NCBI GenBank assembly: GCA_037481835.1
Contig: JBBFKW010000007.1
Span: 32,214 to 96,213 of the forward strand
Source: Desulfosoma sp.
GTDB taxonomy: Bacteria; Desulfobacterota; Syntrophobacteria; Syntrophobacterales; DSM-9756
DNA: 64,000 nucleotides
Direction: 5' to 3'
In this document: positions 1 to 13,263 of the stretch, piece after piece
Numbering within the stretch: the stretch's first letter is position 1
Layout: the number at the start of each line of letters is the position of its first letter
The notes under the pieces: generated by a model
Databases searched by the model: none
Told to the model about the DNA's origin: nothing
Seen by the model: only the letters and a program-made list of their open reading frames with translations
Translations under genes and position numbers: made by a program

Positions 1-2739
1 GGTGTTCGCCCTGGATCCCGAGAAAGTGATCGAATCCGAACCTTGTGCCGGGCTTTGATTTCGTGCCGGATGGTCACGGTGGATATGGACGGCATCATGG
101 AGCGGGTTTCCGGCCGGCCGGGAATGGTGTCCAACCTTGTGGCCGTTTCCCCCATCTTGGACGCCTTGAGCGCAGCCGGCCTCCCCTTCGACTGGGCACA
201 GGACAAAGATGCGCTCGTCCAAGGCTTTCCCGATGCGGTTCTGAAAAATCCCAAGCTCCTCGGCCTCTATCGGGAAGCCATGGAAAGGGCTCGTCGCGAA
301 CGCCGCGAGTGGCCGTCCCCCGTTGCAGGAAATGGTGCCGGCAAAAGCGATTTCGGGGAAGCATCCGCGGGAGCCACACCGGCCTTTCCCGCTGGGCAAA
401 GCCGGGGGTGCGCGGAAGATCCCGGGGATGCGCTCATGATCATGGGTGGCACATTGGCGGGGATGGTTCTCTCCCAGATCGCCCTGCCGGAACACCCGCT
501 TTTTTACGTGGGATTCCCCATCACGCCCGCGGGCAATCCCTTCTATGCCATGGCGGAAGCTTTTGCCAACGGGCACCCTTATATCGTGGTCGATGAGCTG
601 AACCCGTCGGAAAAAGTGGCCGCGGAAAAGCTCTTGGGAGTGGCCCGAACGGGACTGTTTCTCCCCGTGACGTTTACGGCTTCCCAGGGCTGGCGGCTTT
701 TTACTGAAATCATCCCGCAGTTCGTCGGCGCTCGCTTGGAAGGTCTCTTTCTTTTGACAAAGAGGGCCCTTGCGGCGCCTAACCTCAACATCGAGGAAAG
801 CCATACCGATTTCATGACCTTTAGGGACGACGGCGGGATCATGCTGGCCCCCAAGAGCATTCAGGAATACGTCCCCTGTTTGTACCTGGCTCGGCTGCTC
901 ACTCACTTCGCCAAGCTCCCCGTCGTTCTTTCCATCGGCGGCATCACGGACACGCACAAGATCGGCCTGACCCGGGTGCCGCCCGACATCGTGGTGCGCC
1001 GCTGGCTTACGGAGACGCTGCAGGGATTCGATTTCTTGGAAGGGCGGATCGTCAATCCATCCGGCCACCGGGTGGTGCACGGTCCCAGCTGCACCGCCGC
1101 CACGTACCAGGAAACCCAAAGCGAAGTGGAAAAAGCCCACGCCATGGTGTGCCGGGTGTGGCCCTATGCGGTGGAAGCCGTGCGCCGGCTGACCGGGGTG
1201 GCTTTGAACCCGCTGGAAGTGCGGGTGGCCGGAACGGCCATGGAAGAAGCCGTCCCAGAGAGCGCTTCCTCCGTCGAAACTCTGCTCATGCTCCAAGGCT
1301 CTCTCTTCCCCAACGCCGTGGAAGCTTTGCAGGAATTGGAAGAAGAAGGCTGGCGGGCAATGGGCTGCGTGTCCGTGCGGCTCATGAACCCCTTCCCCGA
1401 AGAAGAGATCCAACATTGGATCGGCGGTCTCAGGGCTTTGGCGGTTTTGGATCGATCCAACAGTTTCGGGTCCGTCCCGCCGCTGGCTTCCCGCATTTTC
1501 AACGCGTGCGCCCGTCGCCGAAAGGATGGATCCAGAGCCGGGCCGATCGTTTTGAGAACTCTTGTGGGAGGTTTGGGCGGCCGGGAAATCACCGTGCCGG
1601 AAATGAAAGCTCTGATCCTTTCCACCCATCTTCTTTTCAGTCCATGGGAACCCTGGGAAGGTGAAGCCCTGGGACGATGGGTAGAGGAAGACGGCGCGCT
1701 TCGGGATTGGATCGAAGAATTGGCTGCTTTGGAGATGCGAGCTCTGGAACGGCATACACGGGTACCGAAGCCTGTCAAGGCCCAGGGGCCGGATGGAGAT
1801 CTGTTCTTCAAAGAGCGGATCCGCCGCCAGATTGTCCAACGGGACTATGTGGGCCTGCTCGCCCACTACAACCAGGTGGAATTCGTGGCGCCGAGAGAAG
1901 TTTACGGAGAGACGGCCCTGAGGCAGCAGCTGGTCATCGAGCTGGAAAAGCGCCTCGCTCGGCTGGCCGCCGAAAGCGGCCGCCGTGACTGGCGCCGTGC
2001 CTTGGTGCTCCTGCACTACGGGACTTCGGAGGAGGATCGCGAAAGAGCGCGAATCTTGCTTTCGGGATTGACCGAGGCCCCCTTTGCAGGGCGACTGCTG
2101 CGTCGCTACGGCCTGGACGGTGATGAGAGAGGAGGGCCCGTCGCGGCCCAAGCCCGCCCAATGGACCTTTCCTCGGGTGCGCCCGCCGTCCCGTGGACGT
2201 GCCTCCTTGAAGAGGAAGAAAGAAAGGCCGAAGCGCTTCCCGCCGTGGCCTACGAGGCGGAAGAAGCCGAGCGCATCGAAAGAGCGATTCGGAACCTTGT
2301 GGATCTTTCGAGCAGGCGGCCGCTGTTCCTCAACCCCGAAGACTACGATCGTCTCCTCCTGGAAGCCCTGGCTCACGAGGCGGATTCCCAGTGGGCCCGG
2401 ATCGTGACGGCCTCGGGGGAACCCTCGGCTTCCCAGCAGGAAGGATACCTGTGGACCTATCGGGATGTGATCGATCGATGCCTGCACCGCGAAGTTCTGG
2501 GGAAATTTTACGCTCCGGAAATTGAAGAGCTTTTCGACGGGCAGGGCCGGGATGGGCTTAGAAAACTTTTCGAAAGCCTCGAACCGTCCCTGGCCTTGGA
2601 AGAAAAGAAAAGGATCGTGGAAGAGCATTTGCGGCGCCGCATGTCCACTGAATGGACCAAGTCCCATGATTTTTATCTGGAAGTTTTCCGAACTTGGGTG
2701 TGGCCCGAAATCAGCGGACAGGGCGCAATGGGCACATAG
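1..2739 (+). CDS. 2-oxoacid:ferredoxin oxidoreductase subunit, gamma-like C-terminal part fused to PorA-type alpha domains, plus ~370-aa unknown C-terminal extension (5'-truncated by window edge)
   Basis: Frame is open from base 1. N-terminal VTVDMDGIMERVSGRPGMVSN resembles the end of a POR gamma domain. Alpha motifs present: GFPITP (YPITP-like), SEKVAA, TASQG, KRALAAPNLNI..SHTD, LDRSNSFG, GLGGREIT. Confidence 0.8.
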   Translation, partial: GVRPGSRESDRIRTLCRALISCRMVTVDMDGIMERVSGRPGMVSNLVAVSPILDALSAAGLPFDWAQDKDALVQGFPDAVLKNPKLLGLYREAMERARRERREWPSPVAGNGAGKSDFGEASAGATPAFPAGQSRGCAEDPGDALMIMGGTLAGMVLSQIALPEHPLFYVGFPITPAGNPFYAMAEAFANGHPYIVVDELNPSEKVAAEKLLGVARTGLFLPVTFTASQGWRLFTEIIPQFVGARLEGLFLLTKRALAAPNLNIEESHTDFMTFRDDGGIMLAPKSIQEYVPCLYLARLLTHFAKLPVVLSIGGITDTHKIGLTRVPPDIVVRRWLTETLQGFDFLEGRIVNPSGHRVVHGPSCTAATYQETQSEVEKAHAMVCRVWPYAVEAVRRLTGVALNPLEVRVAGTAMEEAVPESASSVETLLMLQGSLFPNAVEALQELEEEGWRAMGCVSVRLMNPFPEEEIQHWIGGLRALAVLDRSNSFGSVPPLASRIFNACARRRKDGSRAGPIVLRTLVGGLGGREITVPEMKALILSTHLLFSPWEPWEGEALGRWVEEDGALRDWIEELAALEMRALERHTRVPKPVKAQGPDGDLFFKERIRRQIVQRDYVGLLAHYNQVEFVAPREVYGETALRQQLVIELEKRLARLAAESGRRDWRRALVLLHYGTSEEDRERARILLSGLTEAPFAGRLLRRYGLDGDERGGPVAAQARPMDLSSGAPAVPWTCLLEEEERKAEALPAVAYEAEEAERIERAIRNLVDLSSRRPLFLNPEDYDRLLLEALAHEADSQWARIVTASGEPSASQQEGYLWTYRDVIDRCLHREVLGKFYAPEIEELFDGQGRDGLRKLFESLEPSLALEEKKRIVEEHLRRRMSTEWTKSHDFYLEVFRTWVWPEISGQGAMGT

Positions 2740-2753
2740 GACGGGGGGCGACC

Positions 2754-5700
2754 ATGGGCATGGAAGGACTCAGCTCGCAGTATTCCCTGGAACAATTCTA
2801 TGCGGAGCTTTCCACAGACCAGGAACGAGCCTTTCACAAGACGGCGCGAGACGTCACCGCGGCTTTGGCCGAACGCTTCCGGTTCCGGGATGCCGTTCGG
2901 GACGTGCACAACGCTGTGGAACAAGCTCTCGTCGCCCTGCGAAAAATCGACATGGCTTGGGACAGCGCCCCCGAAGGGGCGTGCCTGCGGGTTTTTCGCA
3001 GGAAATGGTTCGAGGCGGCGCCTCTTGTGGAACATGTCCGACGTGTGGGTTTTTTTTCAACACACCCCGTGGATCTTCTCCCCTGGGTCCGATGGTTCCT
3101 CCTTGTGGAAAACTACCATCGGACGGACCCTGTCCACCACGACCGCCGGTTGGACCGCCTGCGCTTCCTCAAGACCGAAAATCCCCACGCCCCGTGCATC
3201 AGCCACGAAGATGTGCTTCTGTGGCTCGAACACCAGCTTCTTGTCCACGAACGCGAGCCCTTGTCCGCGATCGCTGAAAAATGCGCCGAGCAGCTCCGAA
3301 ACCGGTTGGATGAAACCCTCAGGCCCCACACGGCCCTCGATGCTTTCTTTTTCGTCCTGTTGCGATGCCACCAGTTTTGTCTGGCTGAAACCATGACCGA
3401 AGACGATGCGAGGCGTCTTCAAACCGTCCTGGGATGGCGCCGGTTCCTCTCTCTGACGGATCTCATGCTCGTGGTCATCCATCGGGTCCTCGATCGGGAA
3501 CCTTTGCCGGACGCCGTGACGGTTCTCGATGAGCTGATGGCGGATGGGTTCCAGATTCGCCATGCGAGCTTCAAAGACCCGTACGAAGCGGATGTGGTGG
3601 CCGCGGAAGATACGGCCCGCTTCGATGAGACGACGATCCGGCTGTTCGCATCGGTGGATAAGCTTCACGGCATTTTGGAAAGAGATTGCGCGGCGGTCTT
3701 CCAAGAATGGCAGGCTCGGCGGGGAAAGGTTTTGGACGAGCTTGAGGAGGAGATTTGCGAGCTGAGGGAGATGATCGCCAACCCGCTGCCTCGAAAACAC
3801 CTCATCGGCCGAACCATTCGATTGCTAACGTCCTGGTGCTTGGCTCACGGGAAGCCGGGTGACGAGGCCTGGGAAAACATGTCGTCCGAAGAAGGCCTTA
3901 GAGCGCTCGTCGATCGGGTTCGGGCGTCTTTTCCCGAAGGGGTTCTCAAGGCTTTGGTGCGCCAGCGGCGCGGGTATGAATTGACCACTCGAAAAGAGCT
4001 GGCCCTTCGGATCGAAAGGGAATGCCGCCTGCAGTGGGAAAGTTTTCGAAAAGAGCCGGGTTCTCGAGCCTACGGGGAGGTTGATTTCCGGATTGCTGAG
4101 CGCGTTCGGGCCTTGGCTTCGGGGCCGGTCCCACCGGAAAAGGGTGATGCGGACGCACTCAAGGTCGAAACCCTTGCCGGCTTGGCCGACCTAATCCGGC
4201 GGCGCAAGATTTCCGATGAGGCGGTTTCGTCGTCGTTATGCTTGGGATTGGACGTGTTTTTCCCCACCATGGGAACGCCTTTGGAATTTGTGGAAAGCCT
4301 AAGAGACTTGGTACCTTACGAAGAATTGTGCAACCGCGCTCCGTCGGCGCAAAAGGGCGGACCGGAGGAGGCTGTGGCCTTGTACGAGAGAACCCTGGCC
4401 CGTTTTGCCGGGGCGTTCTACCGATTCGTTGTTGCCCAGGGCAAGAAGGAGGCCGGCCTGCCGCTTGAGCTTTCTTTAAGCGAAATTCCTGAACTGGCGG
4501 CGGTGATGGTCCCTCCGTGGGGTGCCCTGACCGAGGGGTTGCTGCGCAGTGCCGTCCGTAAATTTCAGCATCAATCGGCGCCTCTTTACCGCCGCCGGAA
4601 GAATCCCATCTGCTTGGATGAAGAAGAATTCGGCGTGCACCTGGCTCATTTCGTCATGTGCGAGCTCAAGGCCGATGTGAAGCACTCCGCCGAAACGGGG
4701 ACCCTGGCTGCGGTGCGAAAAGCCGTGACGGAGGAAGCTCTTCGGGTCGTCGTTCCGGACCGCGTCCGAACCCTCACGAGCCCGGAAAGATTCCTACTTC
4801 AATGGGCGGGGATCTTGGACTCCCGGCAGGGCGCCGAAGAGCTGCAGAGAGCCGTGGCGGGGGCTCTTCCCGGCTTGGACTGCGGTGCGTGTGGGGAAAG
4901 CCGATGCGCCTCCTTTGCCCAGGGACTCCTCCAAGGGCGGCGTCGCATCCGCGAGTGCGTACATCTCAGCCCCGCGGGGCAGCGGCACATCGAGGCCATG
5001 GTGCAGGAACATCTCTCCAAAGTCTCGCGAGGAAACGGTGTCGGATCGGCCTACGAACTTTTCCGGAATCCGGCCCTGTGGAGGCGTCTGCCGAAAGCGG
5101 ACCCATTGAGGCGTTCGGTAGTCAAGGTGGTAGATGTGGGCCGACAAGAGGAGCGGCGTCGGGTCATGGATCACGCTTTCCGGAGCTGGCAGGGGCTCGA
5201 TTCCAAGCCGGACGTTTACAAGAGGCCGGACCCGGAGGCTTTTTATCAAGCTCTTGTGGAAACCATCGGGTATGAGGCCACCGAAAGGATTCGCCCCGAG
5301 GAACGCCGGTGGTTGGCCGAGCACGGCCGAATCCGCCTGGAGAAGGAACTGGAAAAGCTGGAGAAGCGCACGGATTGGCTCACGCTGGAGCGGCTCCTCA
5401 TTTCCGGCGGGCCTTCGAGCCTTGAGGCGGATCCCGAAACCCAAGCCCTGCGCGCCTATGAGGCGATGGCCTACCTGCATCAGCTGCACGAGGACGACCG
5501 ACGGCGCCTTTTGGTCCATCGCCTGGAAAGCTTCGAAGAGGGGTTTTCCCAGTGGTGGAATCAAGATCTCCTCACCATGAACCACCCCCGCTACCGGATC
5601 GATAACTGGGAAGAATTTTCCAAGGTCATCAAGAACGCCTTTTGGCATCAGGAAAATTTCCCGCCGCCCCGGCGTGTGGCGGAAGAGCTCTTGGAGCACA

Positions 5701-7619
5701 TGGAGCAGAGCGGCGAAAAGGAAGTCTTTTTCCGGGATGTGCTGTCTTCATGGGTCCAGGACTTTCGGGGGGCGGGGGATCTTTTCCCGCAAGGGCGGAG
5801 GGACGAGGCGGGAACCGACCGCCGGGAAATCGAAAACTTGTCCGATCTGCGCCGGATTTTGGCTCGGTTGTGCCGGGATACGAGGCCTGCCGCCGAAAAG
5901 GCGGACTTTTCCGCATCGGTGCCGGGTTCAACCCGCCGTCGCATCGACGCCGTTTGGAAGGCCTTTCAAAAGTCGCCCGTGACTTTCGCGGCGACCTTTT
6001 CCCTGTCCGACGGGGATTTCACCGACCTGGAAAAACAGCATGTGAGGGATCGCCTCGGGGGGCAGCTCCCGGCGGATCTTTCCCTGGTGCCGTCCATGGC
6101 CGGAGGCCTTGAAGCTCTCGTGCTGGGATTGATCGGCGCCCTGCTGGAACAACAGGATCATCAAAGGCGGTTGGCTGCCCTGACGGAAGAAGCCGTGCGC
6201 TGCGAACAGGCCGAAAAGCTTCCGCAGGAAGCTGTGCGGGCGTGGATTTTCGAGGCCCTGGAGGCAGGCCATGAACCTCGGCAGATTCTGGAAAAAGTGC
6301 TGGGGTGGTTTCACCAGTTTCCCCTGTGGAAAGACCGGATCCTCGTGGATGCGCTCCAGAAGATGGTGAGCCTGACCCGCTGGCGAAACCTCCTGGAAAC
6401 TTTCCCGGGGGTGGTTCTGGAAGGGATTCCTGCGGAAGTCAGGGAAAGCTACGCGCGAACGTTTTCTCGATGGATGGAAAGGGTCGCAGAGGCCGTAGGG
6501 CGATTAGGGGATTTTGATCGAGAACGGCTGCTTTACTACCTATTTGTTCTGGCCAAGAGGGAAGGCGATTTGGACGTCATCACGGCCCTTTTGCGGGAAA
6601 TCCGGGAGACGTCGGATGTCATCGAGGCGGCGTGGCTGCAGTTCACCAACGATCGGCTGACGGAAGTTCTGCCCGCCCCTCCGACCAAGGGCCTGGAAGC
6701 TCGCTACAGCCTGCTGATCAACCGCCTCAAGGACCTGGAACCCGTGTGTCGAGGTCTGATGCAAGGCCTGTCTCGAAGCGAAAAACCTGATGTGGCGGCG
6801 GCGGTGCGCGAACTGCAGCTCTACATGCGATTTCACATGGTTCGCGATGAGGCCGAAGCCATGGATGCGGACGCCTGTTTCGAAACTTTTTGGGAGGAAG
6901 GCTACAACCTGGAAGGGTTGGACAAGGAAACGCTCCGTCAGGCTTTCCTGGCGGAATGGAAAAACCGGGAACGATGGCGAAAAGACCGGGTGTGGCTCAT
7001 GACCATGGCCGTCGCCCGAAGGCTTGCATCCCAGAGCCATGAGCTCTACGAGGCGGACAAGGCTTTTGCCAAAATGCGCCAGGGCCTTCTCAAGGAGGAT
7101 GGACCTGAAGAAGGCCGGGATGTGTGCCGGCGCCGGGGAATCGCCCTGGGCACGGTCAAGGAAGCCATGTACCGCGAGTTGTCCGAACTCTTGGAAAGGG
7201 AACGGATGGATTCCTTCAGGACGCGTATTCGCCAGATCGTGCATCAGTTGGACCGCAAAAGATTGCGGATCGTGCAGGCCTGGTTTTCGGGATCCATCGA
7301 CCGCTACAGCGTTTTCCACGTGCTCAGGCAGTATCAGAAGCGGGCTGAGCCGCCGAGCGACGACGATTTTCGAGAGTTTTTCATGGAACAGTGGTTTCGG
7401 CGTGTGGACCGGCTGCGGGAATCGGATCGCGCGGACCGCGACGATCGGATTCGAGAAGTGGATGAAGGATTTCACGCCCTCTTGGGGGTGTCTCCTCTGG
7501 CGCTGGAAAAAGAAGCGGCAAAGGAGGCAGCCGAGGCCTGGAAGTCCTGGATCCGAGAGACCGAAGAAGAGATCCGTCGTAGGCTGATTGCGGACGAGGT
7601 GCCTACGGCGCCCTTATGA
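2754..7619 (+). CDS. Very large (~1620 aa) hypothetical protein with internal RnfB/AcsC-type [4Fe-4S] motif
   Basis: Long ORF starting 14 nt after the previous stop, purine-rich RBS-like GGACGGGGGG before ATG 2754. Motif LPGLDCGACGESRCASFAQGLLQG-x6-CVHL at ~4866-4967. The rest is unrecognised and looks helical/charged. Confidence 0.75.
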   Translation: MGMEGLSSQYSLEQFYAELSTDQERAFHKTARDVTAALAERFRFRDAVRDVHNAVEQALVALRKIDMAWDSAPEGACLRVFRRKWFEAAPLVEHVRRVGFFSTHPVDLLPWVRWFLLVENYHRTDPVHHDRRLDRLRFLKTENPHAPCISHEDVLLWLEHQLLVHEREPLSAIAEKCAEQLRNRLDETLRPHTALDAFFFVLLRCHQFCLAETMTEDDARRLQTVLGWRRFLSLTDLMLVVIHRVLDREPLPDAVTVLDELMADGFQIRHASFKDPYEADVVAAEDTARFDETTIRLFASVDKLHGILERDCAAVFQEWQARRGKVLDELEEEICELREMIANPLPRKHLIGRTIRLLTSWCLAHGKPGDEAWENMSSEEGLRALVDRVRASFPEGVLKALVRQRRGYELTTRKELALRIERECRLQWESFRKEPGSRAYGEVDFRIAERVRALASGPVPPEKGDADALKVETLAGLADLIRRRKISDEAVSSSLCLGLDVFFPTMGTPLEFVESLRDLVPYEELCNRAPSAQKGGPEEAVALYERTLARFAGAFYRFVVAQGKKEAGLPLELSLSEIPELAAVMVPPWGALTEGLLRSAVRKFQHQSAPLYRRRKNPICLDEEEFGVHLAHFVMCELKADVKHSAETGTLAAVRKAVTEEALRVVVPDRVRTLTSPERFLLQWAGILDSRQGAEELQRAVAGALPGLDCGACGESRCASFAQGLLQGRRRIRECVHLSPAGQRHIEAMVQEHLSKVSRGNGVGSAYELFRNPALWRRLPKADPLRRSVVKVVDVGRQEERRRVMDHAFRSWQGLDSKPDVYKRPDPEAFYQALVETIGYEATERIRPEERRWLAEHGRIRLEKELEKLEKRTDWLTLERLLISGGPSSLEADPETQALRAYEAMAYLHQLHEDDRRRLLVHRLESFEEGFSQWWNQDLLTMNHPRYRIDNWEEFSKVIKNAFWHQENFPPPRRVAEELLEHMEQSGEKEVFFRDVLSSWVQDFRGAGDLFPQGRRDEAGTDRREIENLSDLRRILARLCRDTRPAAEKADFSASVPGSTRRRIDAVWKAFQKSPVTFAATFSLSDGDFTDLEKQHVRDRLGGQLPADLSLVPSMAGGLEALVLGLIGALLEQQDHQRRLAALTEEAVRCEQAEKLPQEAVRAWIFEALEAGHEPRQILEKVLGWFHQFPLWKDRILVDALQKMVSLTRWRNLLETFPGVVLEGIPAEVRESYARTFSRWMERVAEAVGRLGDFDRERLLYYLFVLAKREGDLDVITALLREIRETSDVIEAAWLQFTNDRLTEVLPAPPTKGLEARYSLLINRLKDLEPVCRGLMQGLSRSEKPDVAAAVRELQLYMRFHMVRDEAEAMDADACFETFWEEGYNLEGLDKETLRQAFLAEWKNRERWRKDRVWLMTMAVARRLASQSHELYEADKAFAKMRQGLLKEDGPEEGRDVCRRRGIALGTVKEAMYRELSELLERERMDSFRTRIRQIVHQLDRKRLRIVQAWFSGSIDRYSVFHVLRQYQKRAEPPSDDDFREFFMEQWFRRVDRLRESDRADRDDRIREVDEGFHALLGVSPLALEKEAAKEAAEAWKSWIRETEEEIRRRLIADEVPTAPL

Positions 7620-7728
7620 AAAAGGCCGCACCCTTATTTTCCGCCCTTTTCGACCTCGGCGGGTCGTCACGGCGTGATGAACGCCGCGGCCGGCCACGGA
7701 AAAGAAGAATATTCAAGGAGTCGTCGCC

Positions 7729-10700
7729 ATGAGCGCCTATCAACCTTTGGACCCGAACATGACATGTCGTCCCTCGTGGTGGGTGGAACGTCTTCGGTGC
7801 GTTTCGGGCCGCCCAGTTCCAGTTCGGGACACGCGCATCCCGAAAGACGGGAAACCTCTGGCGGCGGTCGTCGGTGCCCTTCGGGCAGGATTGGACGAGC
7901 TGCGGTTGCTTGTAGGGGCGGATTCGGAGGCTTTCCGGGGTTTTGTCGAAGGGCTGCGCGCCGAGGCCTTGGGACCGTGGGGAGAGGATCCTGAGCGCCG
8001 TTTGGTCGGGCTGGTTAAAGAGGCTTTGGGGCGAAGGGATTGGCGCGAAAAAGACATCATCGACATGATTCTCGCCTATCTCACGGCGCTGGGTCCTTCG
8101 CTGCCCGAAGATGTGAGAATGTCTTGGGAAAGGTTGGAAAGGGCGGCGAAGGCGCGCAACGGTGCCGAGCGCACGCTCATGGAAGGCCTCATCAGCGAAG
8201 CGCGGGGGCGTCTTGGCGGCTTGGCGTGGGCCCGGGAGCATGCCTTGGAAAAAGGACCCCGTGAGGGCGCCTTCGGCCTTTCTTCCCTTCGATGGCTTCG
8301 AGAAACACTGGCCGCCATGACGGGATGCGCCGGCGATCTCGCCGACCGTTCCGATGAGGAGTTGGCGCGCCTGAGTCCGGCCGAGATATGGCAGGATTTG
8401 GACGAGGCTTTGACGAAAGCCTGGGGGAAAACGGGCCGGAGCTTTCCCGTCAAAGATTTGGAAAAAGCTTCCTTGTATCTCATGGAGGACATGGGAGCGA
8501 GGAGTCCCAACCATCGGTTCTTCATCCGTTTTCTCATTGAAGACGAAGCGGCCTATCGGCGCCTCTTGAGAACCTGTTACGCCGACGAAACGGTGCAGAG
8601 GGCCTGTTTGGATCAGGAATGCGAGCGGTTCAACCGTCTTCCGGAACATGCGGCCCACCGGGTGTTCTACGACGCCGACGAAAAAACGTGGTGGCTTAAA
8701 GCGTTTTTCCTCAGGCCGGACGTGGTGCACTGTTTCGTGGAACGGGAAAGAGCCAAGGATATTTACCATGTCCTCGCGGGACTGGAACCTAAAGCCTATC
8801 TGCCTCGGGTGCTCCATGAAGTTCAAGGGCTTTTCGGGTATGTGACACCGGAGGCGTGCCGCCACATCGTCCAGCGCCTCGGCTTGGATCCCGAAGACGT
8901 TCTTCGGGTGATCGCCTCCTACAAGCAGTACAGCGCCGATCCCTCGGGGGACATCATCATCTACGTGTGCAAGGGAACAGCGTGTTTTCTCCGCGGCCAG
9001 CCTGAACTGTCGCGTCGGCTCACTGAGGAAATCGGGGCGGAAGTGGACGCCGTGGGCCGCTACGGGGTGCAGTATGTGGAGATGGATTGTTTCGGGGTGT
9101 GCCATCTGGCTCCCGTGGTGCGCGCCGGAAATCGTTTCTATGGAAAGCAAAAGGCGGAAGATATTCCCCGGCTGGTGAATAGCCTCATCCAGGGCCCCGA
9201 CTACGAAAACCGGCAACGGTTCGTGTCGCGCCTTTTGGAAAAGATGCGTGCCGACAGCGTCAGCGAGCCCGTGGATGCTTTGAGGGTCGAATCCGTGGGA
9301 AAATTTTCCAAAGTCGACCGCTTGGGAGTGCGGGAAGAGGGCGCGTGGGACGATTCTTTGGAGGGATGTTCGGTAATTTTGGACGACAAGGGCGCTGTTT
9401 CCATACTCCTACCGGACGGTTTCGCGCACGGCGTAGGCCGACTGGTCCCTCGGGTTCTTCCTTTCATCATGCGGGATGCGGACGGTTTCAATCGTTTCGG
9501 CGCCGTCGTTCTCGATGATCATCGTCGGGCGGCACGGGTGTTGGGCGTGCCCGACCTGACGGACGAGGAGGTGATCCGGGGCGCGCTTCGTCCGACGGCT
9601 CGAGTCGTGGACGGCCGCGTGGTGCTCTCTTCCCATGAAAAGACCGTGGTGCTGGGCCCTTATACGGATCGGGTGCTCATCGCCGACGCCCCTGATGCCT
9701 ACGTCGCCGTTGTTTTGGCGGAAGGAGGTGCTTCAGGTCCTTTCGTCGAAACCGAAGCAAGAGGCCCTGACAGGGTTGCGTCCGAAGAGGCCTCTTTCCG
9801 GGCGGGCCAAGACCGGGTTGTTTTGGATTTCGCCGCTGCAGGGCGTCCGTCCTGCATGGCGTCCTATCGAGCGGCGGGGGGCTATGAGTCGGTCTACCGG
9901 GTGCTGGGATTTCGCGGGGAGCCCCCGTGGGATCCGGAACGGATCATCGCGGAAGTGCGGGACGCGAAGCTTCGGGGACGGGGCGGGGCGGGCTTTCCCA
10001 CGGGACGCAAGTGGGAAGCCATGTTACGGGCCGTGTGTCGGATCGATCCCGAAGACGGCAACCAAGACCCGGTGAAACTCATCGTGGCCAACGGCGACGA
10101 AGGAGACCCGGGGGCCTTCATGGACCGCACGCTCATCGAGGAAAAACCCCATCAGGTTCTGGAAGGAATGATCTTGGCCGCCGTTGCCGTGGGCGCCCGC
10201 TACGGGGTGATCTATGTGCGAAAAGAGTATGAAGACGCCGTGAGAAGCCTGGAGGACGCGCTTTTCGAGGCACGGCGCTGCGGGTTTCTCGGGCGGGATA
10301 TTTTTGGAGTGTCCGGATTGCACTTTGACGTGGAAATCCGATTGGGGGCCGGGGCGTTCGTGGCCGGAGAGAAGCGGGCCATCATGCGGGCCATTGAAGG
10401 AAAGCCTGCAGAACCCACCATCAAGGCCCCGTCCAACACCGTGCGCGGGCTTTGGGGAAAGCCCACACTGCTCAACAACGTGGAAACCTTTGCCAATGTC
10501 CCCGTCATTCTTCACCGAGGGAGCGCCTGGTATGCCCGGCTGGGCACGTCCCGAAGCGGCGGGACCAAAATCTTTTCCGTCGCCGGCATTGTCAAGAAAA
10601 CCGGGCTCGTGGAAGTCCGCTTCGGCAAGACCCTTGGGGATGTCATCGAAATCTGCGGCGGAATCCAGGACGGAAAGAAACTCTCCGGAGTCCAGATCGG

Positions 10701-11394
10701 GGGGCCGTCCGGAGCCATCCTGTCCTTGACCGGCGCTCGGGCTTACCTGCTCCAGACGCCTTTGGATTTCGACACGTTCAACGATGCCGGCGCCATGTTG
10801 GGTTCCGGCGGGTTGGTCTTTATCGGAGAAGACGACGACGTCGTCCGGCTGGCTCGCCATTTTACGGATTGGCTTTCGGAAGAATCCTGCGGTCAATGCC
10901 CGTCGTGTTTTCGAGGCACCCGGGCCTTGGGGCGTGTCCTGGACAAGATCCTGGCCGGTCAGGGCACAGCGGGCGATATTCACGAATTGTGGGCTTTGAG
11001 CGATGTGGTGCGGGCCGGAAGTCAGTGCGGCCTAGGAACAACCGCCGCCAACCCCGTGACCAGCGCCTTGCGGTTTTTCCCCGCGTCCTTTTTCCACTAC
11101 CTGCTCGGCAACCCGGAGATGCAACCTCGCGATGTCTTTGAGGCCCTGGAGGCCCTGAGGCTCCTGACACGACAGGAAATCGTTCGTGTTGCGGGAGTGC
11201 GCCGACACGTGGAAGGGGCGGCTTTCACGCTGAAACGGCATCTGGTGCGGTTCCTGGTGGAAGAAATCGAAAAAATCGATCGCTACCGGCCGTTGCCTTC
11301 CCGAATGACCGATCGGTTGCTCCGGTTGCTGGGCCTGCCGCGCTACGAAGTGGGCCAAAGAGAAGTCGTCATGGAATGGCGCGATGTGGCATAA
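7729..11394 (+). CDS. Fusion of unknown N-terminal domain + NuoE/HydC-like [2Fe-2S] domain + NuoF/HydB-like FMN/NAD(P)H-binding domain
   Basis: AAGGAG RBS. LHEVQGLFGYV, CKGTAC...CFGVC (NuoE-type 2Fe-2S). LRGRGGAGFPTGRKW, NGDEGDPGAFMDR, NNVETFANV, GGPSG, ESCGQCPSC...CGLG (NuoF FMN and N3-type cluster motifs). Confidence 0.88.
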   Translation: MSAYQPLDPNMTCRPSWWVERLRCVSGRPVPVRDTRIPKDGKPLAAVVGALRAGLDELRLLVGADSEAFRGFVEGLRAEALGPWGEDPERRLVGLVKEALGRRDWREKDIIDMILAYLTALGPSLPEDVRMSWERLERAAKARNGAERTLMEGLISEARGRLGGLAWAREHALEKGPREGAFGLSSLRWLRETLAAMTGCAGDLADRSDEELARLSPAEIWQDLDEALTKAWGKTGRSFPVKDLEKASLYLMEDMGARSPNHRFFIRFLIEDEAAYRRLLRTCYADETVQRACLDQECERFNRLPEHAAHRVFYDADEKTWWLKAFFLRPDVVHCFVERERAKDIYHVLAGLEPKAYLPRVLHEVQGLFGYVTPEACRHIVQRLGLDPEDVLRVIASYKQYSADPSGDIIIYVCKGTACFLRGQPELSRRLTEEIGAEVDAVGRYGVQYVEMDCFGVCHLAPVVRAGNRFYGKQKAEDIPRLVNSLIQGPDYENRQRFVSRLLEKMRADSVSEPVDALRVESVGKFSKVDRLGVREEGAWDDSLEGCSVILDDKGAVSILLPDGFAHGVGRLVPRVLPFIMRDADGFNRFGAVVLDDHRRAARVLGVPDLTDEEVIRGALRPTARVVDGRVVLSSHEKTVVLGPYTDRVLIADAPDAYVAVVLAEGGASGPFVETEARGPDRVASEEASFRAGQDRVVLDFAAAGRPSCMASYRAAGGYESVYRVLGFRGEPPWDPERIIAEVRDAKLRGRGGAGFPTGRKWEAMLRAVCRIDPEDGNQDPVKLIVANGDEGDPGAFMDRTLIEEKPHQVLEGMILAAVAVGARYGVIYVRKEYEDAVRSLEDALFEARRCGFLGRDIFGVSGLHFDVEIRLGAGAFVAGEKRAIMRAIEGKPAEPTIKAPSNTVRGLWGKPTLLNNVETFANVPVILHRGSAWYARLGTSRSGGTKIFSVAGIVKKTGLVEVRFGKTLGDVIEICGGIQDGKKLSGVQIGGPSGAILSLTGARAYLLQTPLDFDTFNDAGAMLGSGGLVFIGEDDDVVRLARHFTDWLSEESCGQCPSCFRGTRALGRVLDKILAGQGTAGDIHELWALSDVVRAGSQCGLGTTAANPVTSALRFFPASFFHYLLGNPEMQPRDVFEALEALRLLTRQEIVRVAGVRRHVEGAAFTLKRHLVRFLVEEIEKIDRYRPLPSRMTDRLLRLLGLPRYEVGQREVVMEWRDVA

Positions 11395-11452
11395 AGGCAA
11401 AAGTGAAGAGGGAAATCCAGCTGTCAGGAAAACGTTGCCCTGGAGGGGGACC

Positions 11453-12022
11453 ATGATGACCAAAGAGAGAACGTACTTCCAAGCCTTTCGAGAAATGGTG
11501 CAGGTGGTGAGCGGCACCTTGGATGTGCAGGTGGTGCTGCAGGCCATGGTGAGCACGATTCCCCAGGTCTTGGGGGCCAAGGCCTGTGCCGTCCGCCTCC
11601 TGGACCCCAAAGGCCGCACTCTGGAATTGGCCGCCAGTCACGGACTCAGTGACGCCTACATCCACAAGGGGCCTGTCGATGCGGACCAAAGCCTTGCCGA
11701 AACGCTTCAAGGAAAGACCGTCGTCATCCACGATGCATCGACGGACCCTCGAGCCCAGTACGGCGAAGCGGCCCGCAAGGAGGGGATCGTGGGCATCTGT
11801 TCCGTTCCCCTTAAGGTCAAAGGGAGGGTGATCGGGGTCCTGAGAATTTACACCGAGGAGCCCAAGGAGTATGTCCCCGACGAGCTGGCCTTTGTGGAGG
11901 CTTTGGGAGAATTGGGAGGCATTGCCATTGAAAACGCCCGTATGTACGAGCGGCTGAAAAAGGATTACGAAGAGGTCATGAGCGATGTCTTTCGCTTTGT
12001 GGGGTATCGGCGCAGCCTGTGA
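11453..12022 (+). CDS. Stand-alone GAF domain protein
   Basis: GGAGGGGG RBS before ATG 11453. LELAASHGLS, SVPLKVKGRVIGVLRIY, IAIENARMY are typical GAF signatures. Confidence 0.85.
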   Translation: MMTKERTYFQAFREMVQVVSGTLDVQVVLQAMVSTIPQVLGAKACAVRLLDPKGRTLELAASHGLSDAYIHKGPVDADQSLAETLQGKTVVIHDASTDPRAQYGEAARKEGIVGICSVPLKVKGRVIGVLRIYTEEPKEYVPDELAFVEALGELGGIAIENARMYERLKKDYEEVMSDVFRFVGYRRSL

Positions 12023-12129: not shown

Positions 12130-12207
12130 TTTTTTTAGATGGCGGCGAACGCCCGCTCAAGGGGAGAGCGTGCGGGCTTGAATCCGGTCAGAGTGAGGGC
12201 GGCGGAA

Positions 12208-13263
12208 ATGGCGGTCGGGGCGGTTGCAGCGGTTGCGGAGAAGGACTACGGCGCTCTGGATTTTCGAAAAGCGAAGAAACAGTCCCTGGACGGGCCGGTC
12301 AAAATCGAAGATCTGGGCTACGTGCCTTTTCCGGTGAAATTTTTGGTTCCGGATTTCATGATCCCGTGCGATCTCTTTGTTCCCGTGCTGGCCAAAGGGG
12401 AAGAGCTTCCCACCTTCGTCAAGGTCTTGGACCGAGGGCAGTTTTTTTCCGAGGAGTGGAGGTTCGCGCTCAAGGAACAGCGTGTGGACATGCTCTATGC
12501 GGAAGAAGACGCCGCGATGGGCCTCGACGACTATTTCGCCGAAGTCCTCCATGCCTTCACCGAAGACGAGGTGACCCCCACGTGGCAAAAGGCCCTGGTT
12601 TTGTACAATTACGGGGAATTTCTCGCCCGGCGCCTCTTTCAGGATGTGCATGACGGGGATCTCTTCGAAAAAACGATCCATTGGGCAGACTCCGTCGTTG
12701 GGCTCGTCCAGGGGCAGCAGGCGAAGGTTTCCGTGATCTATCGGCTGTTTTCCCGAGATTACGAAACTTTCAACCACAGTGTCCAGGTGGCGATGCTGGC
12801 CGCGGCTTTTTGCGGCTTTTGCGGCTGGCGCTCCGAGGACGCGACTCGTGTCGGTGTCGCCGGGCTTTACCACGATATCGGAAAAATCTGGGTAGACCAG
12901 AGGATCCTTCTCAAGCCCTCATCCCTCACCCGTGAAGAATTCGGCCAGATCCGTCGGCATCCGCAGGCCGCTTACGACCATTTGGCGGCCTTAGACTGGA
13001 TGAACGCCGATCAGTTATCCGCCGTTCGCGAACATCACGAATCCATGGACGGCACGGGCTATCCTCAGGGGCTCAAAGGAGCGGACATCCATCCATACGC
13101 TCGGGTTTTGCACATCTGTGATTGTTTTGACGCCTTGACCACCCACCGGCCCTACAAAAAAGCCGTCACCCCTTACAAGGCCTTGAAGCTCATGCAAAGT
13201 GAGATGAGGCTTTCTTTCGATCGACACCTCCTGTATAAATTCATTCAATTTCTCGGTTCTTGA
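12208..13263 (+). CDS. HD-GYP domain protein (putative c-di-GMP phosphodiesterase)
   Basis: [39 protein letters not shown]. Start uncertain: ATG 12139 lies almost at the predicted transcription start, so ATG 12208 is preferred. Confidence 0.9.

Follow-up and report, generated by a model that had tools for sequence, protein, structure and literature searches.

Can bacterial subunits wire the oxidation of a 2-oxoacid directly to a pyridine nucleotide, with no free ferredoxin in between? The question is raised by four co-oriented open reading frames (ORFs), here called genes A to D, at the beginning of a 64,000-nucleotide stretch of the Desulfosoma sp. genome. This stretch, referred to as the window, is G000:C7:32214-96213, where G000 is the genome studied and C7 its contig. 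The ORFs occupy positions 1-2739 (5'-open), 2754-7619, 7729-11394, and 11453-12022, with intergenic gaps of 14, 109, and 58 nt. An initial annotation had described four closely spaced genes in one orientation, the three large ones combining recognizable redox modules with long unrecognized stretches. The ORF coordinates confirmed the layout, and Pfam confirmed the modules (POR_N and PFOR_II; FeS PF04060; 2Fe-2S_thioredx and Complex1_51K).

We give an even chance to the reading that the products of genes A, B, and C form a single soluble complex, a 2-oxoacid:NADP+ oxidoreductase that acylates coenzyme A (CoA), needs no ferredoxin, and does not bifurcate. We infer the electron-transfer order, NADP+ preference, substrate, and direction from the sequences, and the physical binding from natural gene fusions and co-inheritance. 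The features concerned are as follows (window coordinates unless another record is named).

1..2739, + strand: gene A, 3' part (residues 1251-2162), single-chain 2-oxoacid:ferredoxin oxidoreductase (OFOR)
502..1602, + strand: OFOR alpha domains I and II, with FPITP (Thr1425), Glu1454, Arg1505, and Leu1512
1648..2736, + strand: gene A C-terminal extension (residues 1800-2162), no family match
2754..7619, + strand: gene B, 1,621 aa, proposed scaffold and electron bridge
4866..4961, + strand: gene B PF04060 [4Fe-4S] motif, Cys710, 713, 718, and 735
7729..11394, + strand: gene C, 1,221 aa, NuoE plus NuoF
8797..9183, + strand: gene C NuoE/BfuC-like [2Fe-2S] domain, Cys414, 419, 454, and 458
9847..11094, + strand: gene C NuoF/BfuB-like domain with flavin mononucleotide (FMN) and [4Fe-4S], Cys1054, 1057, 1060, and 1100
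10366..10377, + strand: G-E-K-R (880-883) replacing G-E-E-T
11453..12022, + strand: gene D, 189-aa stand-alone GAF protein, accessory
L002:1183-1240 (G000:C7:28187), outside the window, about 277 nt before gene A: promoter-like element

The first ORF of the window comprises the last 912 residues of the 2,162-aa gene A (P0004), which starts 3.75 kb upstream of the window at G000:C7:28464 (window position -3749).

Inheritance, redox sites, and fusions of genes A, B, and C

Searches with the family-specific parts of A, B, and C each matched the same 6 of 401 genomes of the phylum, and none of the three genes was found alone among these 401. Among 41 relatives, 12 genomes including G000 carried a full-length gene B; the other 11 all showed A-B-C in this order, with one contig stopping inside C and one copy frameshifted. 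At 25 loci found through gene B, A lay upstream in 20/20 with upstream sequence and C downstream in 22/22 with downstream sequence; nine of these loci are the same records as those of the 11 relatives, and the kin are not independent. In 17 metagenome loci found through gene A, B followed in 11/11 and C in 8/8 where there was room. The named relatives are Desulfosoma, Desulfacinum, Desulfoferrobacter, Desulforhabdus, Desulfobacca, other Syntrophobacteraceae, and Desulfobacterales metagenome-assembled genomes (MAGs), and the cluster is intact and syntenic in the records of cultured Desulfacinum infernum, D. hydrothermale, and Desulfoferrobacter suflitae. Database names of the homologues are generic. 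The synteny and co-occurrence on which the initial annotation had made its proposal depend both hold. Clusters L050, L061 (= L028), and L066 carry several frameshifts, reflecting sequencing error or decay.

The unrecognized stretches show median identities of 0.16-0.45 between homologues of gene B and 0.26-0.50 within the extensions of gene C. In comparison with L062, third-position changes exceeded those at the first and second positions in 9/9 segments, and two of the stretches folded with mean predicted local distance difference test scores (pLDDT) of 83 and 80. The conservation, third-position excess, and confident folds indicate that these stretches are real coding sequence. Pairwise hhalign comparison of 12 unrecognized segments gave no pair above 20% probability.

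Gene A consists of an N-terminal extension, a delta domain (191-241), an insertion, a beta domain (~530-800), a helical linker, a gamma domain (~1097-1350), an alpha domain (1418-1790), and a C-terminal extension; its Pfam matches are Fer4 (191-240), POR_N (1418-1631), and PFOR_II (1676-1784). The delta domain has two [4Fe-4S] motifs at 197-239, whose eight Cys are found in 47/49 rows (two gaps). The thiamine pyrophosphate (TPP)-binding beta domain, which had been predicted to lie upstream, sits inside gene A (PorB match at 533-720; PDB 9bt4_C, E 5.6e-7; aligned also to 5c4i_C). It contains the TPP site and a proximal [4Fe-4S] cluster site, represented by GGDGG (634-638), SNTGG (677-681), and the invariant Cys541/544/578/757. 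The gamma domain matched PF01558 at E 1.4e-4, under the cut-off here and over it in the homologue P0043. In the alpha domain, aligned to 6cin and 7plm, Thr1425 (FPITP), Glu1454, and Arg1505 occur in 49/49 rows. Altogether, 19 key positions (eight delta Cys, four beta Cys, Asp636, Ser677, Asn678, Thr1425, Glu1454, Arg1505, and Arg1140) are identical in every covering row (47-49 of 49, the rest being gaps). This invariance over an alignment of 49 sequences identifies gene A as a true OFOR, with all TPP, Fe-S, and substrate residues intact.

A Thr and an Arg bind the substrate carboxylate, and the pocket of DaPFOR is formed by Leu121, Ala219, Ile843, and Asn996 (PMC5020499). Gene A keeps the pocket Thr, Arg, Leu, and Asn. 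The Ile843 position is occupied by the invariant Glu581 (L002:3204-3206), within ETGCMSE as compared with TGCLEV in 9bt4_C; pyruvate-specific enzymes have Ile or Val here. The substrate is not fixed by the sequence, and pyruvate is the most likely single candidate.

Between and around its domains, gene A has ~1,100 residues lacking a family match, which are family-specific and not present in ordinary OFORs. The last ~165 residues, also without a family match, come after a poorly conserved linker and are a candidate docking module. P0097 (1,322 aa) comprises the delta-beta part of A alone and may be a true split or a fragment. The genome holds 11 POR_N matches, including an ordinary four-gene gamma-delta-alpha-beta POR on C5; since this POR is separate, gene A is not needed for ferredoxin reduction.

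Gene B corresponds to the ~1620-aa protein that had been noted for a single Fe-S motif, and FeS PF04060 (705-736, all four Cys kept) proved to be its sole Pfam match. The motif has its relatives in the N-terminal clusters of two proteins, RnfB and the large subunit of the corrinoid Fe-S protein (RnfB/AcsC-type). An AlphaFold2 model of residues 690-1615, built with 29 sequences, is almost entirely alpha-helical (pLDDT 83.2; predicted template-modelling score, pTM, 0.69). A fold search with this model only gave no clear match (best Foldseek TM about 0.1); the best Z, 6.5, was to RnfB over the Fe-S domain, and the ESM Atlas contained no usable match for gene B. A gene B profile searched against 1.84 billion representatives gave 28 matches at 1e-30 or better, and most of the weaker matches, among those listed, span only the Fe-S motif. 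We propose that gene B acts as a scaffold and electron bridge. Complex prediction for a single pair, gene B 70-880 with gene A 1990-2155, gave an ipSAE of 0.00 in two runs (mark 0.32). Membrane anchoring of A-D was considered and rejected: a crude hydropathy scan found no 19-residue window above 1.9, and gene B has no transmembrane helix.

Gene C comprises a helical N-domain (1-350), NuoE, a beta-rich insert (490-700), NuoF, and a 100-residue tail, with Pfam matches to 2Fe-2S_thioredx (357-485), Complex1_51K (743-925), SLBB, and NADH_4Fe-4S (1041-1121). A model of residues 1-710 (pLDDT 79.8, pTM 0.79) matched only NuoE in a fold search. The closest solved relatives of the NuoF part are the bifurcating HydB/NfnB subunits. 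The Bfu family is defined by C1 in BfuC, FMN/B1 plus B2-B5 in BfuB, and BfuA (PMC9304861). Gene C contains the C1 [2Fe-2S], FMN, and B1 [4Fe-4S] sites. The C-terminal CxxCxxC was present in 0/41 rows, corresponding to the loss of the 2x[4Fe-4S] (B3/B4, IPR017896) domain; Cys1100 is the last Cys of gene C, and none is conserved between NuoE and NuoF (B2/B5 sites). The window has no BfuA (NuoG-like) gene next to gene C, nor does such a family recur around the homologous loci. Lacking the C-terminal ferredoxin domain, any Cys after 1100, and a BfuA gene, gene C is Bfu-derived but outside the Bfu family. As originally noted, no NuoG, HydA, Fdh, or GltD gene follows gene C; the next genes encode the GAF protein and then an HD protein. 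Gene C also lacks the adjacent NuoG and membrane genes of complex I. Two complex I-like nuo clusters with their own NuoF occur elsewhere (G000:C1:128000-146000 and C14:37900-53100); the NuoF on contig C1 resembles that of Nuo-Bfu, with GEST, a Cys domain at its N-terminus, and a 2x[4Fe-4S] domain at its C-terminus.

The canonical NuoF motif GAGAF/Y-V-C-G-E-E-T reads GAGAFVAGEKR in the gene C family. GEKR was found in 33/33 matched rows (some duplicates) and in all fusions described below, including P0159 and P0160. Of 31 other PF01512 loci of the phylum, 18 had the motif (15 GEET, 3 GEST, 0 basic) and 13 had no motif match. In the alignment with Thermotoga maritima HydB, a Lys at +17 and a Phe at +20 come after the second Glu, and FdsB has the same spacing (Glu259, Lys276, Leu279), which places Lys882 at the position of FdsB Glu259. 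This Glu binds the ribose 2'-OH and discriminates NAD from NADP; the E259K, E259R, E259G, and E259Q variants acquire activity with NADP+ and bind NAD+ less tightly, their specificity being low and dual (PMC10671435). HytB of Clostridium autoethanogenum is a natural NADP-specific NuoF homologue (PMC5861303). The GEKR motif thus makes NADP(H) the probable cofactor of gene C, a preference that we hold with good confidence.

Natural fusions connect the three genes. In L045, a Desulfobacterales MAG, B and C form one open frame containing no N. Six complete B+C fusions of 2,980-3,020 aa (P0103-P0108), several of them in more than one assembly, were identified, together with the more divergent P0159 (2,242 aa), which combines a partial B with C. 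P0160 (7,473 aa) contains A (about 1094-3414), B (3578-5091), and C (5384-6812) in the same order, keeps every Cys, TPP, YPITP, GRGGAGFP, and AGEKR motif, and shows 23-48% identity. The domain at its N-terminus is similar to clusters in which Omnitrophota is the most frequent phylum (score 0.93-0.94), and a signal-like N-terminus stands ahead of the Fe-S enzyme. P0128/P0129 represent a B+C fusion in two pieces on one contig and may be a true split or fragments.

The B-C linker is homologous in all fusions, decayed at the N-terminus of the Desulfobacca-type gene C (L058-L060), and lost in the window. In P0103-P0108, P0159, P0160, and L045, it carries HAAH/HAGH and DHxxxH motifs, a possible metal site. 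In a NuoF tree (quick method, 22 rows, rooted on two other NuoF), fused forms branch off first, and further fused forms separate two groups of split genes (SH-aLRT 89-96). This placement suggests that B and C were first one chain, tentatively, because the two most divergent rows lie on long branches.

Proposed mechanism and rival explanations

The net reaction would be 2-oxoacid + CoA + NADP+ -> acyl-CoA + CO2 + NADPH. The TPP of gene A would decarboxylate the 2-oxoacid and the acyl group would pass to CoA. Electrons would leave A by way of its proximal [4Fe-4S] cluster and the delta pair of [4Fe-4S] clusters and reach B, whose only [4Fe-4S] would replace both free ferredoxin and NuoG; from there they would go on to the [4Fe-4S] (N3/B1) and FMN of gene C for NADP+ reduction. 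The large helical additions would hold A, B, and C together in a complex of about 550 kDa per ABC unit, probably dimeric like other OFORs. With potentials of -500 mV for pyruvate/acetyl-CoA and -380 mV for NADP (Table 1, PMC9304861), NADP+ reduction by pyruvate is downhill by ~120 mV. Homologues without B2-B5 do not bifurcate (PMC9304861), and the missing C-terminal 2x[4Fe-4S] domain likewise points to a non-bifurcating enzyme. The initially proposed single complex from 2-oxoacid to pyridine nucleotide thus draws support from synteny, co-occurrence, and the B+C and A+B+C fusions; the reductive carboxylation suggested with it is unlikely without bifurcation.

Several observations weigh against this proposal. 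The six full B+C fusions belong to one clade (63-82% identity), and the A+B+C fusion is a single sequence on one contig. Omnitrophota giant proteins often string many enzymes together (bioRxiv 10.64898/2026.06.07.730766), so that the triple fusion may record operon capture rather than contact, which weakens the inference and does not remove it. The invariant Glu581 at the Ile/Val pocket position suggests that the substrate may not be pyruvate. FdsB E259K is dual-specific with low efficiency, 68 for NADP+ versus 81 for NAD+ (PMC10671435); the GEKR motif therefore predicts acceptance of NADP+, not exclusivity. An NfnA-/NfnB-like pair in the genome (L100, G000:C2:210692-213799) could also supply NADPH. 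Finally, the marks described for bifurcating beta subunits (Ala/Met, Phe, and GGPSG; PMC7311640) are all present in gene C, as Ala796/Met798, Phe877, and GGPSG, in 38/41 rows, duplicates included. Number 367 of that source is not aromatic in chain 7p5h_B, and this mark was mapped to the GAGA[F/Y] position.

The same complex might be linked to NAD+, or be dual-specific, and so resemble PadEFGHI in effect. NuoF-type subunits are mostly NAD-specific, and the FdsB E259K variant retains NAD+ activity. In the gene C family, however, the acidic residue is lost and two basic residues are present throughout, including P0159 and P0160, as compared with 0/18 other NuoF, and we regard this alternative as unlikely.

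We give equally little weight to the idea that A is a free-standing OFOR reducing soluble ferredoxin, with B+C as a co-regulated ferredoxin:NADP+ reductase connected to it only through the ferredoxin pool. Gene A includes a delta domain, the part through which DaPFOR hands electrons to external ferredoxin (PMC5020499), and it is a separate gene in all Desulfobacterota loci seen. Against this separation stand the ~1,100 family-specific residues of A, the absence of any of A, B, and C alone in the 401 genomes, and their union in one chain in P0160. Moreover, no small ferredoxin family recurs beside the cluster among clustered ORFs of at least 120 aa, a set that does not fully cover small ferredoxins.

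A non-canonical bifurcating or confurcating enzyme also seems improbable. Here, B1-FMN-C1 of gene C would split the electrons of NADPH; the B cluster and the delta clusters of A would replace B3/B4 as the low-potential branch and power the reductive carboxylation of an acyl-CoA, with the high-potential acceptor encoded elsewhere. The kinship of the NuoF part to HydB/NfnB, the bifurcating-type marks, and the presence of the minimal site, B1-FMN-C1 (PMC11829005), fit this idea. B2-B5 are absent, however, while B3/B4 are essential and their deletion abolishes bifurcation (PMC11829005), and no BfuA or other third-substrate gene is found in the cluster. If it applied, the cluster would represent a new bifurcating/confurcating type, with an NADP(H)-switched B1-FMN-C1 and the clusters of gene B and the OFOR as a built-in low-potential branch, serving NADPH-assisted carboxylation or the oxidation of a non-pyruvate 2-oxoacid, also within the 7,473-residue Omnitrophota chain; we consider this a long shot.

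Chance neighbourhood, misassembly, or gene decay, to which only the three frameshifted loci (L050, L061, and L066) lend anything, can practically be dismissed, being already refuted by synteny and conserved residues, with intact clusters in the cultured strains, the synonymous excess, and the conserved upstream element.

The GAF gene and the upstream element

The initial annotation had counted the GAF gene as a fourth member of the system. A, B, and C stand as the core; gene D does not belong to it. It follows in 17/21 loci with room and was rejected as a core subunit, being absent in L054, L056, L058, and L070 and having no GAF match in the triple fusion P0160. Gene D has paralogues preceding an Hdr-Flx cluster (tandem GAF, G000:C2:142976-144025) and following a nuo cluster (C14:53374-53907), and the GAF gene therefore looks like an accessory of redox operons. 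A tandem-GAF version of gene D occurs in L059. An HD-domain (HD-GYP-like) gene follows the GAF gene at 12139-13263 and is adjacent in seven close-relative loci only.

Upstream of gene A, TGTGAA-N9-11-TTGAC was found in 21/24 loci, the same loci from which the pattern was derived, and at two sites genome-wide in G000 (0-3 after shuffling). The element fits one promoter with an operator half-site beside the -35 hexamer, which we take to resemble a Rex half-site. G000 holds a Rex-family gene. The full Rex palindrome was not enriched upstream of gene A and had one genome site at one mismatch, located elsewhere. A promoter and terminator scan remained at chance level (1 vs 3.0 and 26 vs 22.8).

Comparison with known systems

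The predicted Por-Bfu (Schut et al. 2022, PMC9304861) shares with A-B-C an OFOR and a BfuB/BfuC-type core of FMN, [4Fe-4S], and [2Fe-2S], and both are proposed to be a single complex leading from pyruvate to a pyridine nucleotide. As described there, Por-Bfu alone has BfuA, B2-B5, four separate Por subunits, and proposed bifurcation with NAD and ferredoxin. A-B-C, in contrast, has no BfuA or B2-B5; its OFOR is a single delta-beta-gamma-alpha chain, its Fe-S subunit is helical and 1,621 aa long, and its motif is of the NADP type. Having kept the bifurcating-type residues and lost B2-B5, gene C would be a natural test of the determinants of Bfu bifurcation.

Pyruvate:NADP+ oxidoreductase (PNO) is a pyruvate:ferredoxin oxidoreductase fused to a flavodoxin/FNR (cytochrome P450 reductase-like) module. 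It is like A-B-C in the proposed net reaction, a TPP/CoA-dependent oxidation of pyruvate in which NADP+ accepts the electrons and free ferredoxin takes no part. PMC6856725 names the PNO of Euglena and Cryptosporidium. The output of A-B-C differs, consisting of NuoE-NuoF with FMN and a separate bridging subunit, and a family search found no flavodoxin, FAD-, or FNR-type family in genes A-C. If our reading is true, the cluster would provide a bacterial route from 2-oxoacids to NADPH, built independently of the eukaryotic PNO, and a source of NADPH for anaerobes without free ferredoxin.

Phenylglyoxylate:NAD+ oxidoreductase, PadEFGHI, has five ordinary-sized subunits, uses NAD+ and an aromatic substrate, and contains a flavoprotein that is not NuoF-like. 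Compared with A-B-C, it lacks the giant additions. The PadG match on the alpha domain of gene A (E 7.8e-9) reached 34.5 bits, below the NF045764 cut-off of 700. PadEFGHI is a bacterial member of the OFOR family and transfers electrons directly to its pyridine nucleotide (Hirsch et al. 1998, as cited in PMC5109826).

Complex I NuoEF, FdsBG, HoxF, and the Syntrophus HydB resemble gene C in having C1, FMN, and B1 only, and in S. aciditrophicus HydB, NuoE is likewise fused before NuoF (PMC7311640). Such non-bifurcating diaphorases are supplied with electrons by a NuoG-like subunit, and their pyridine nucleotide is NAD. Gene C differs in having no NuoG partner, in its 350-, 210-, and 100-residue additions, in its bifurcating-type marks, and in GEKR. 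HytB, compared here by its description only, belongs to a bifurcating hydrogenase/formate dehydrogenase complex (PMC5861303). If the proposal holds, gene C would be a natural NADP-type NuoF, with GEKR as a model for engineering NADP use in NuoF-type enzymes, and it would be accompanied by a 1,600-residue Fe-S subunit that takes over the roles of ferredoxin and NuoG. The triple fusion would give a specific example of an entire enzyme contained in a giant protein of the Omnitrophota type. Culturable thermophilic sulfate reducers (Desulfacinum, Desulfosoma, and Desulfoferrobacter records) hold the system, which makes purification and structure determination feasible.

No description of the A-B-C system was found in the literature searched, from which subscription papers were mostly absent. 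Taken together, A-B-C is a real, conserved architecture in which an OFOR would be coupled to a pyridine nucleotide through a new subunit, and it is a member of neither Por-Bfu, PNO, nor PadEFGHI.

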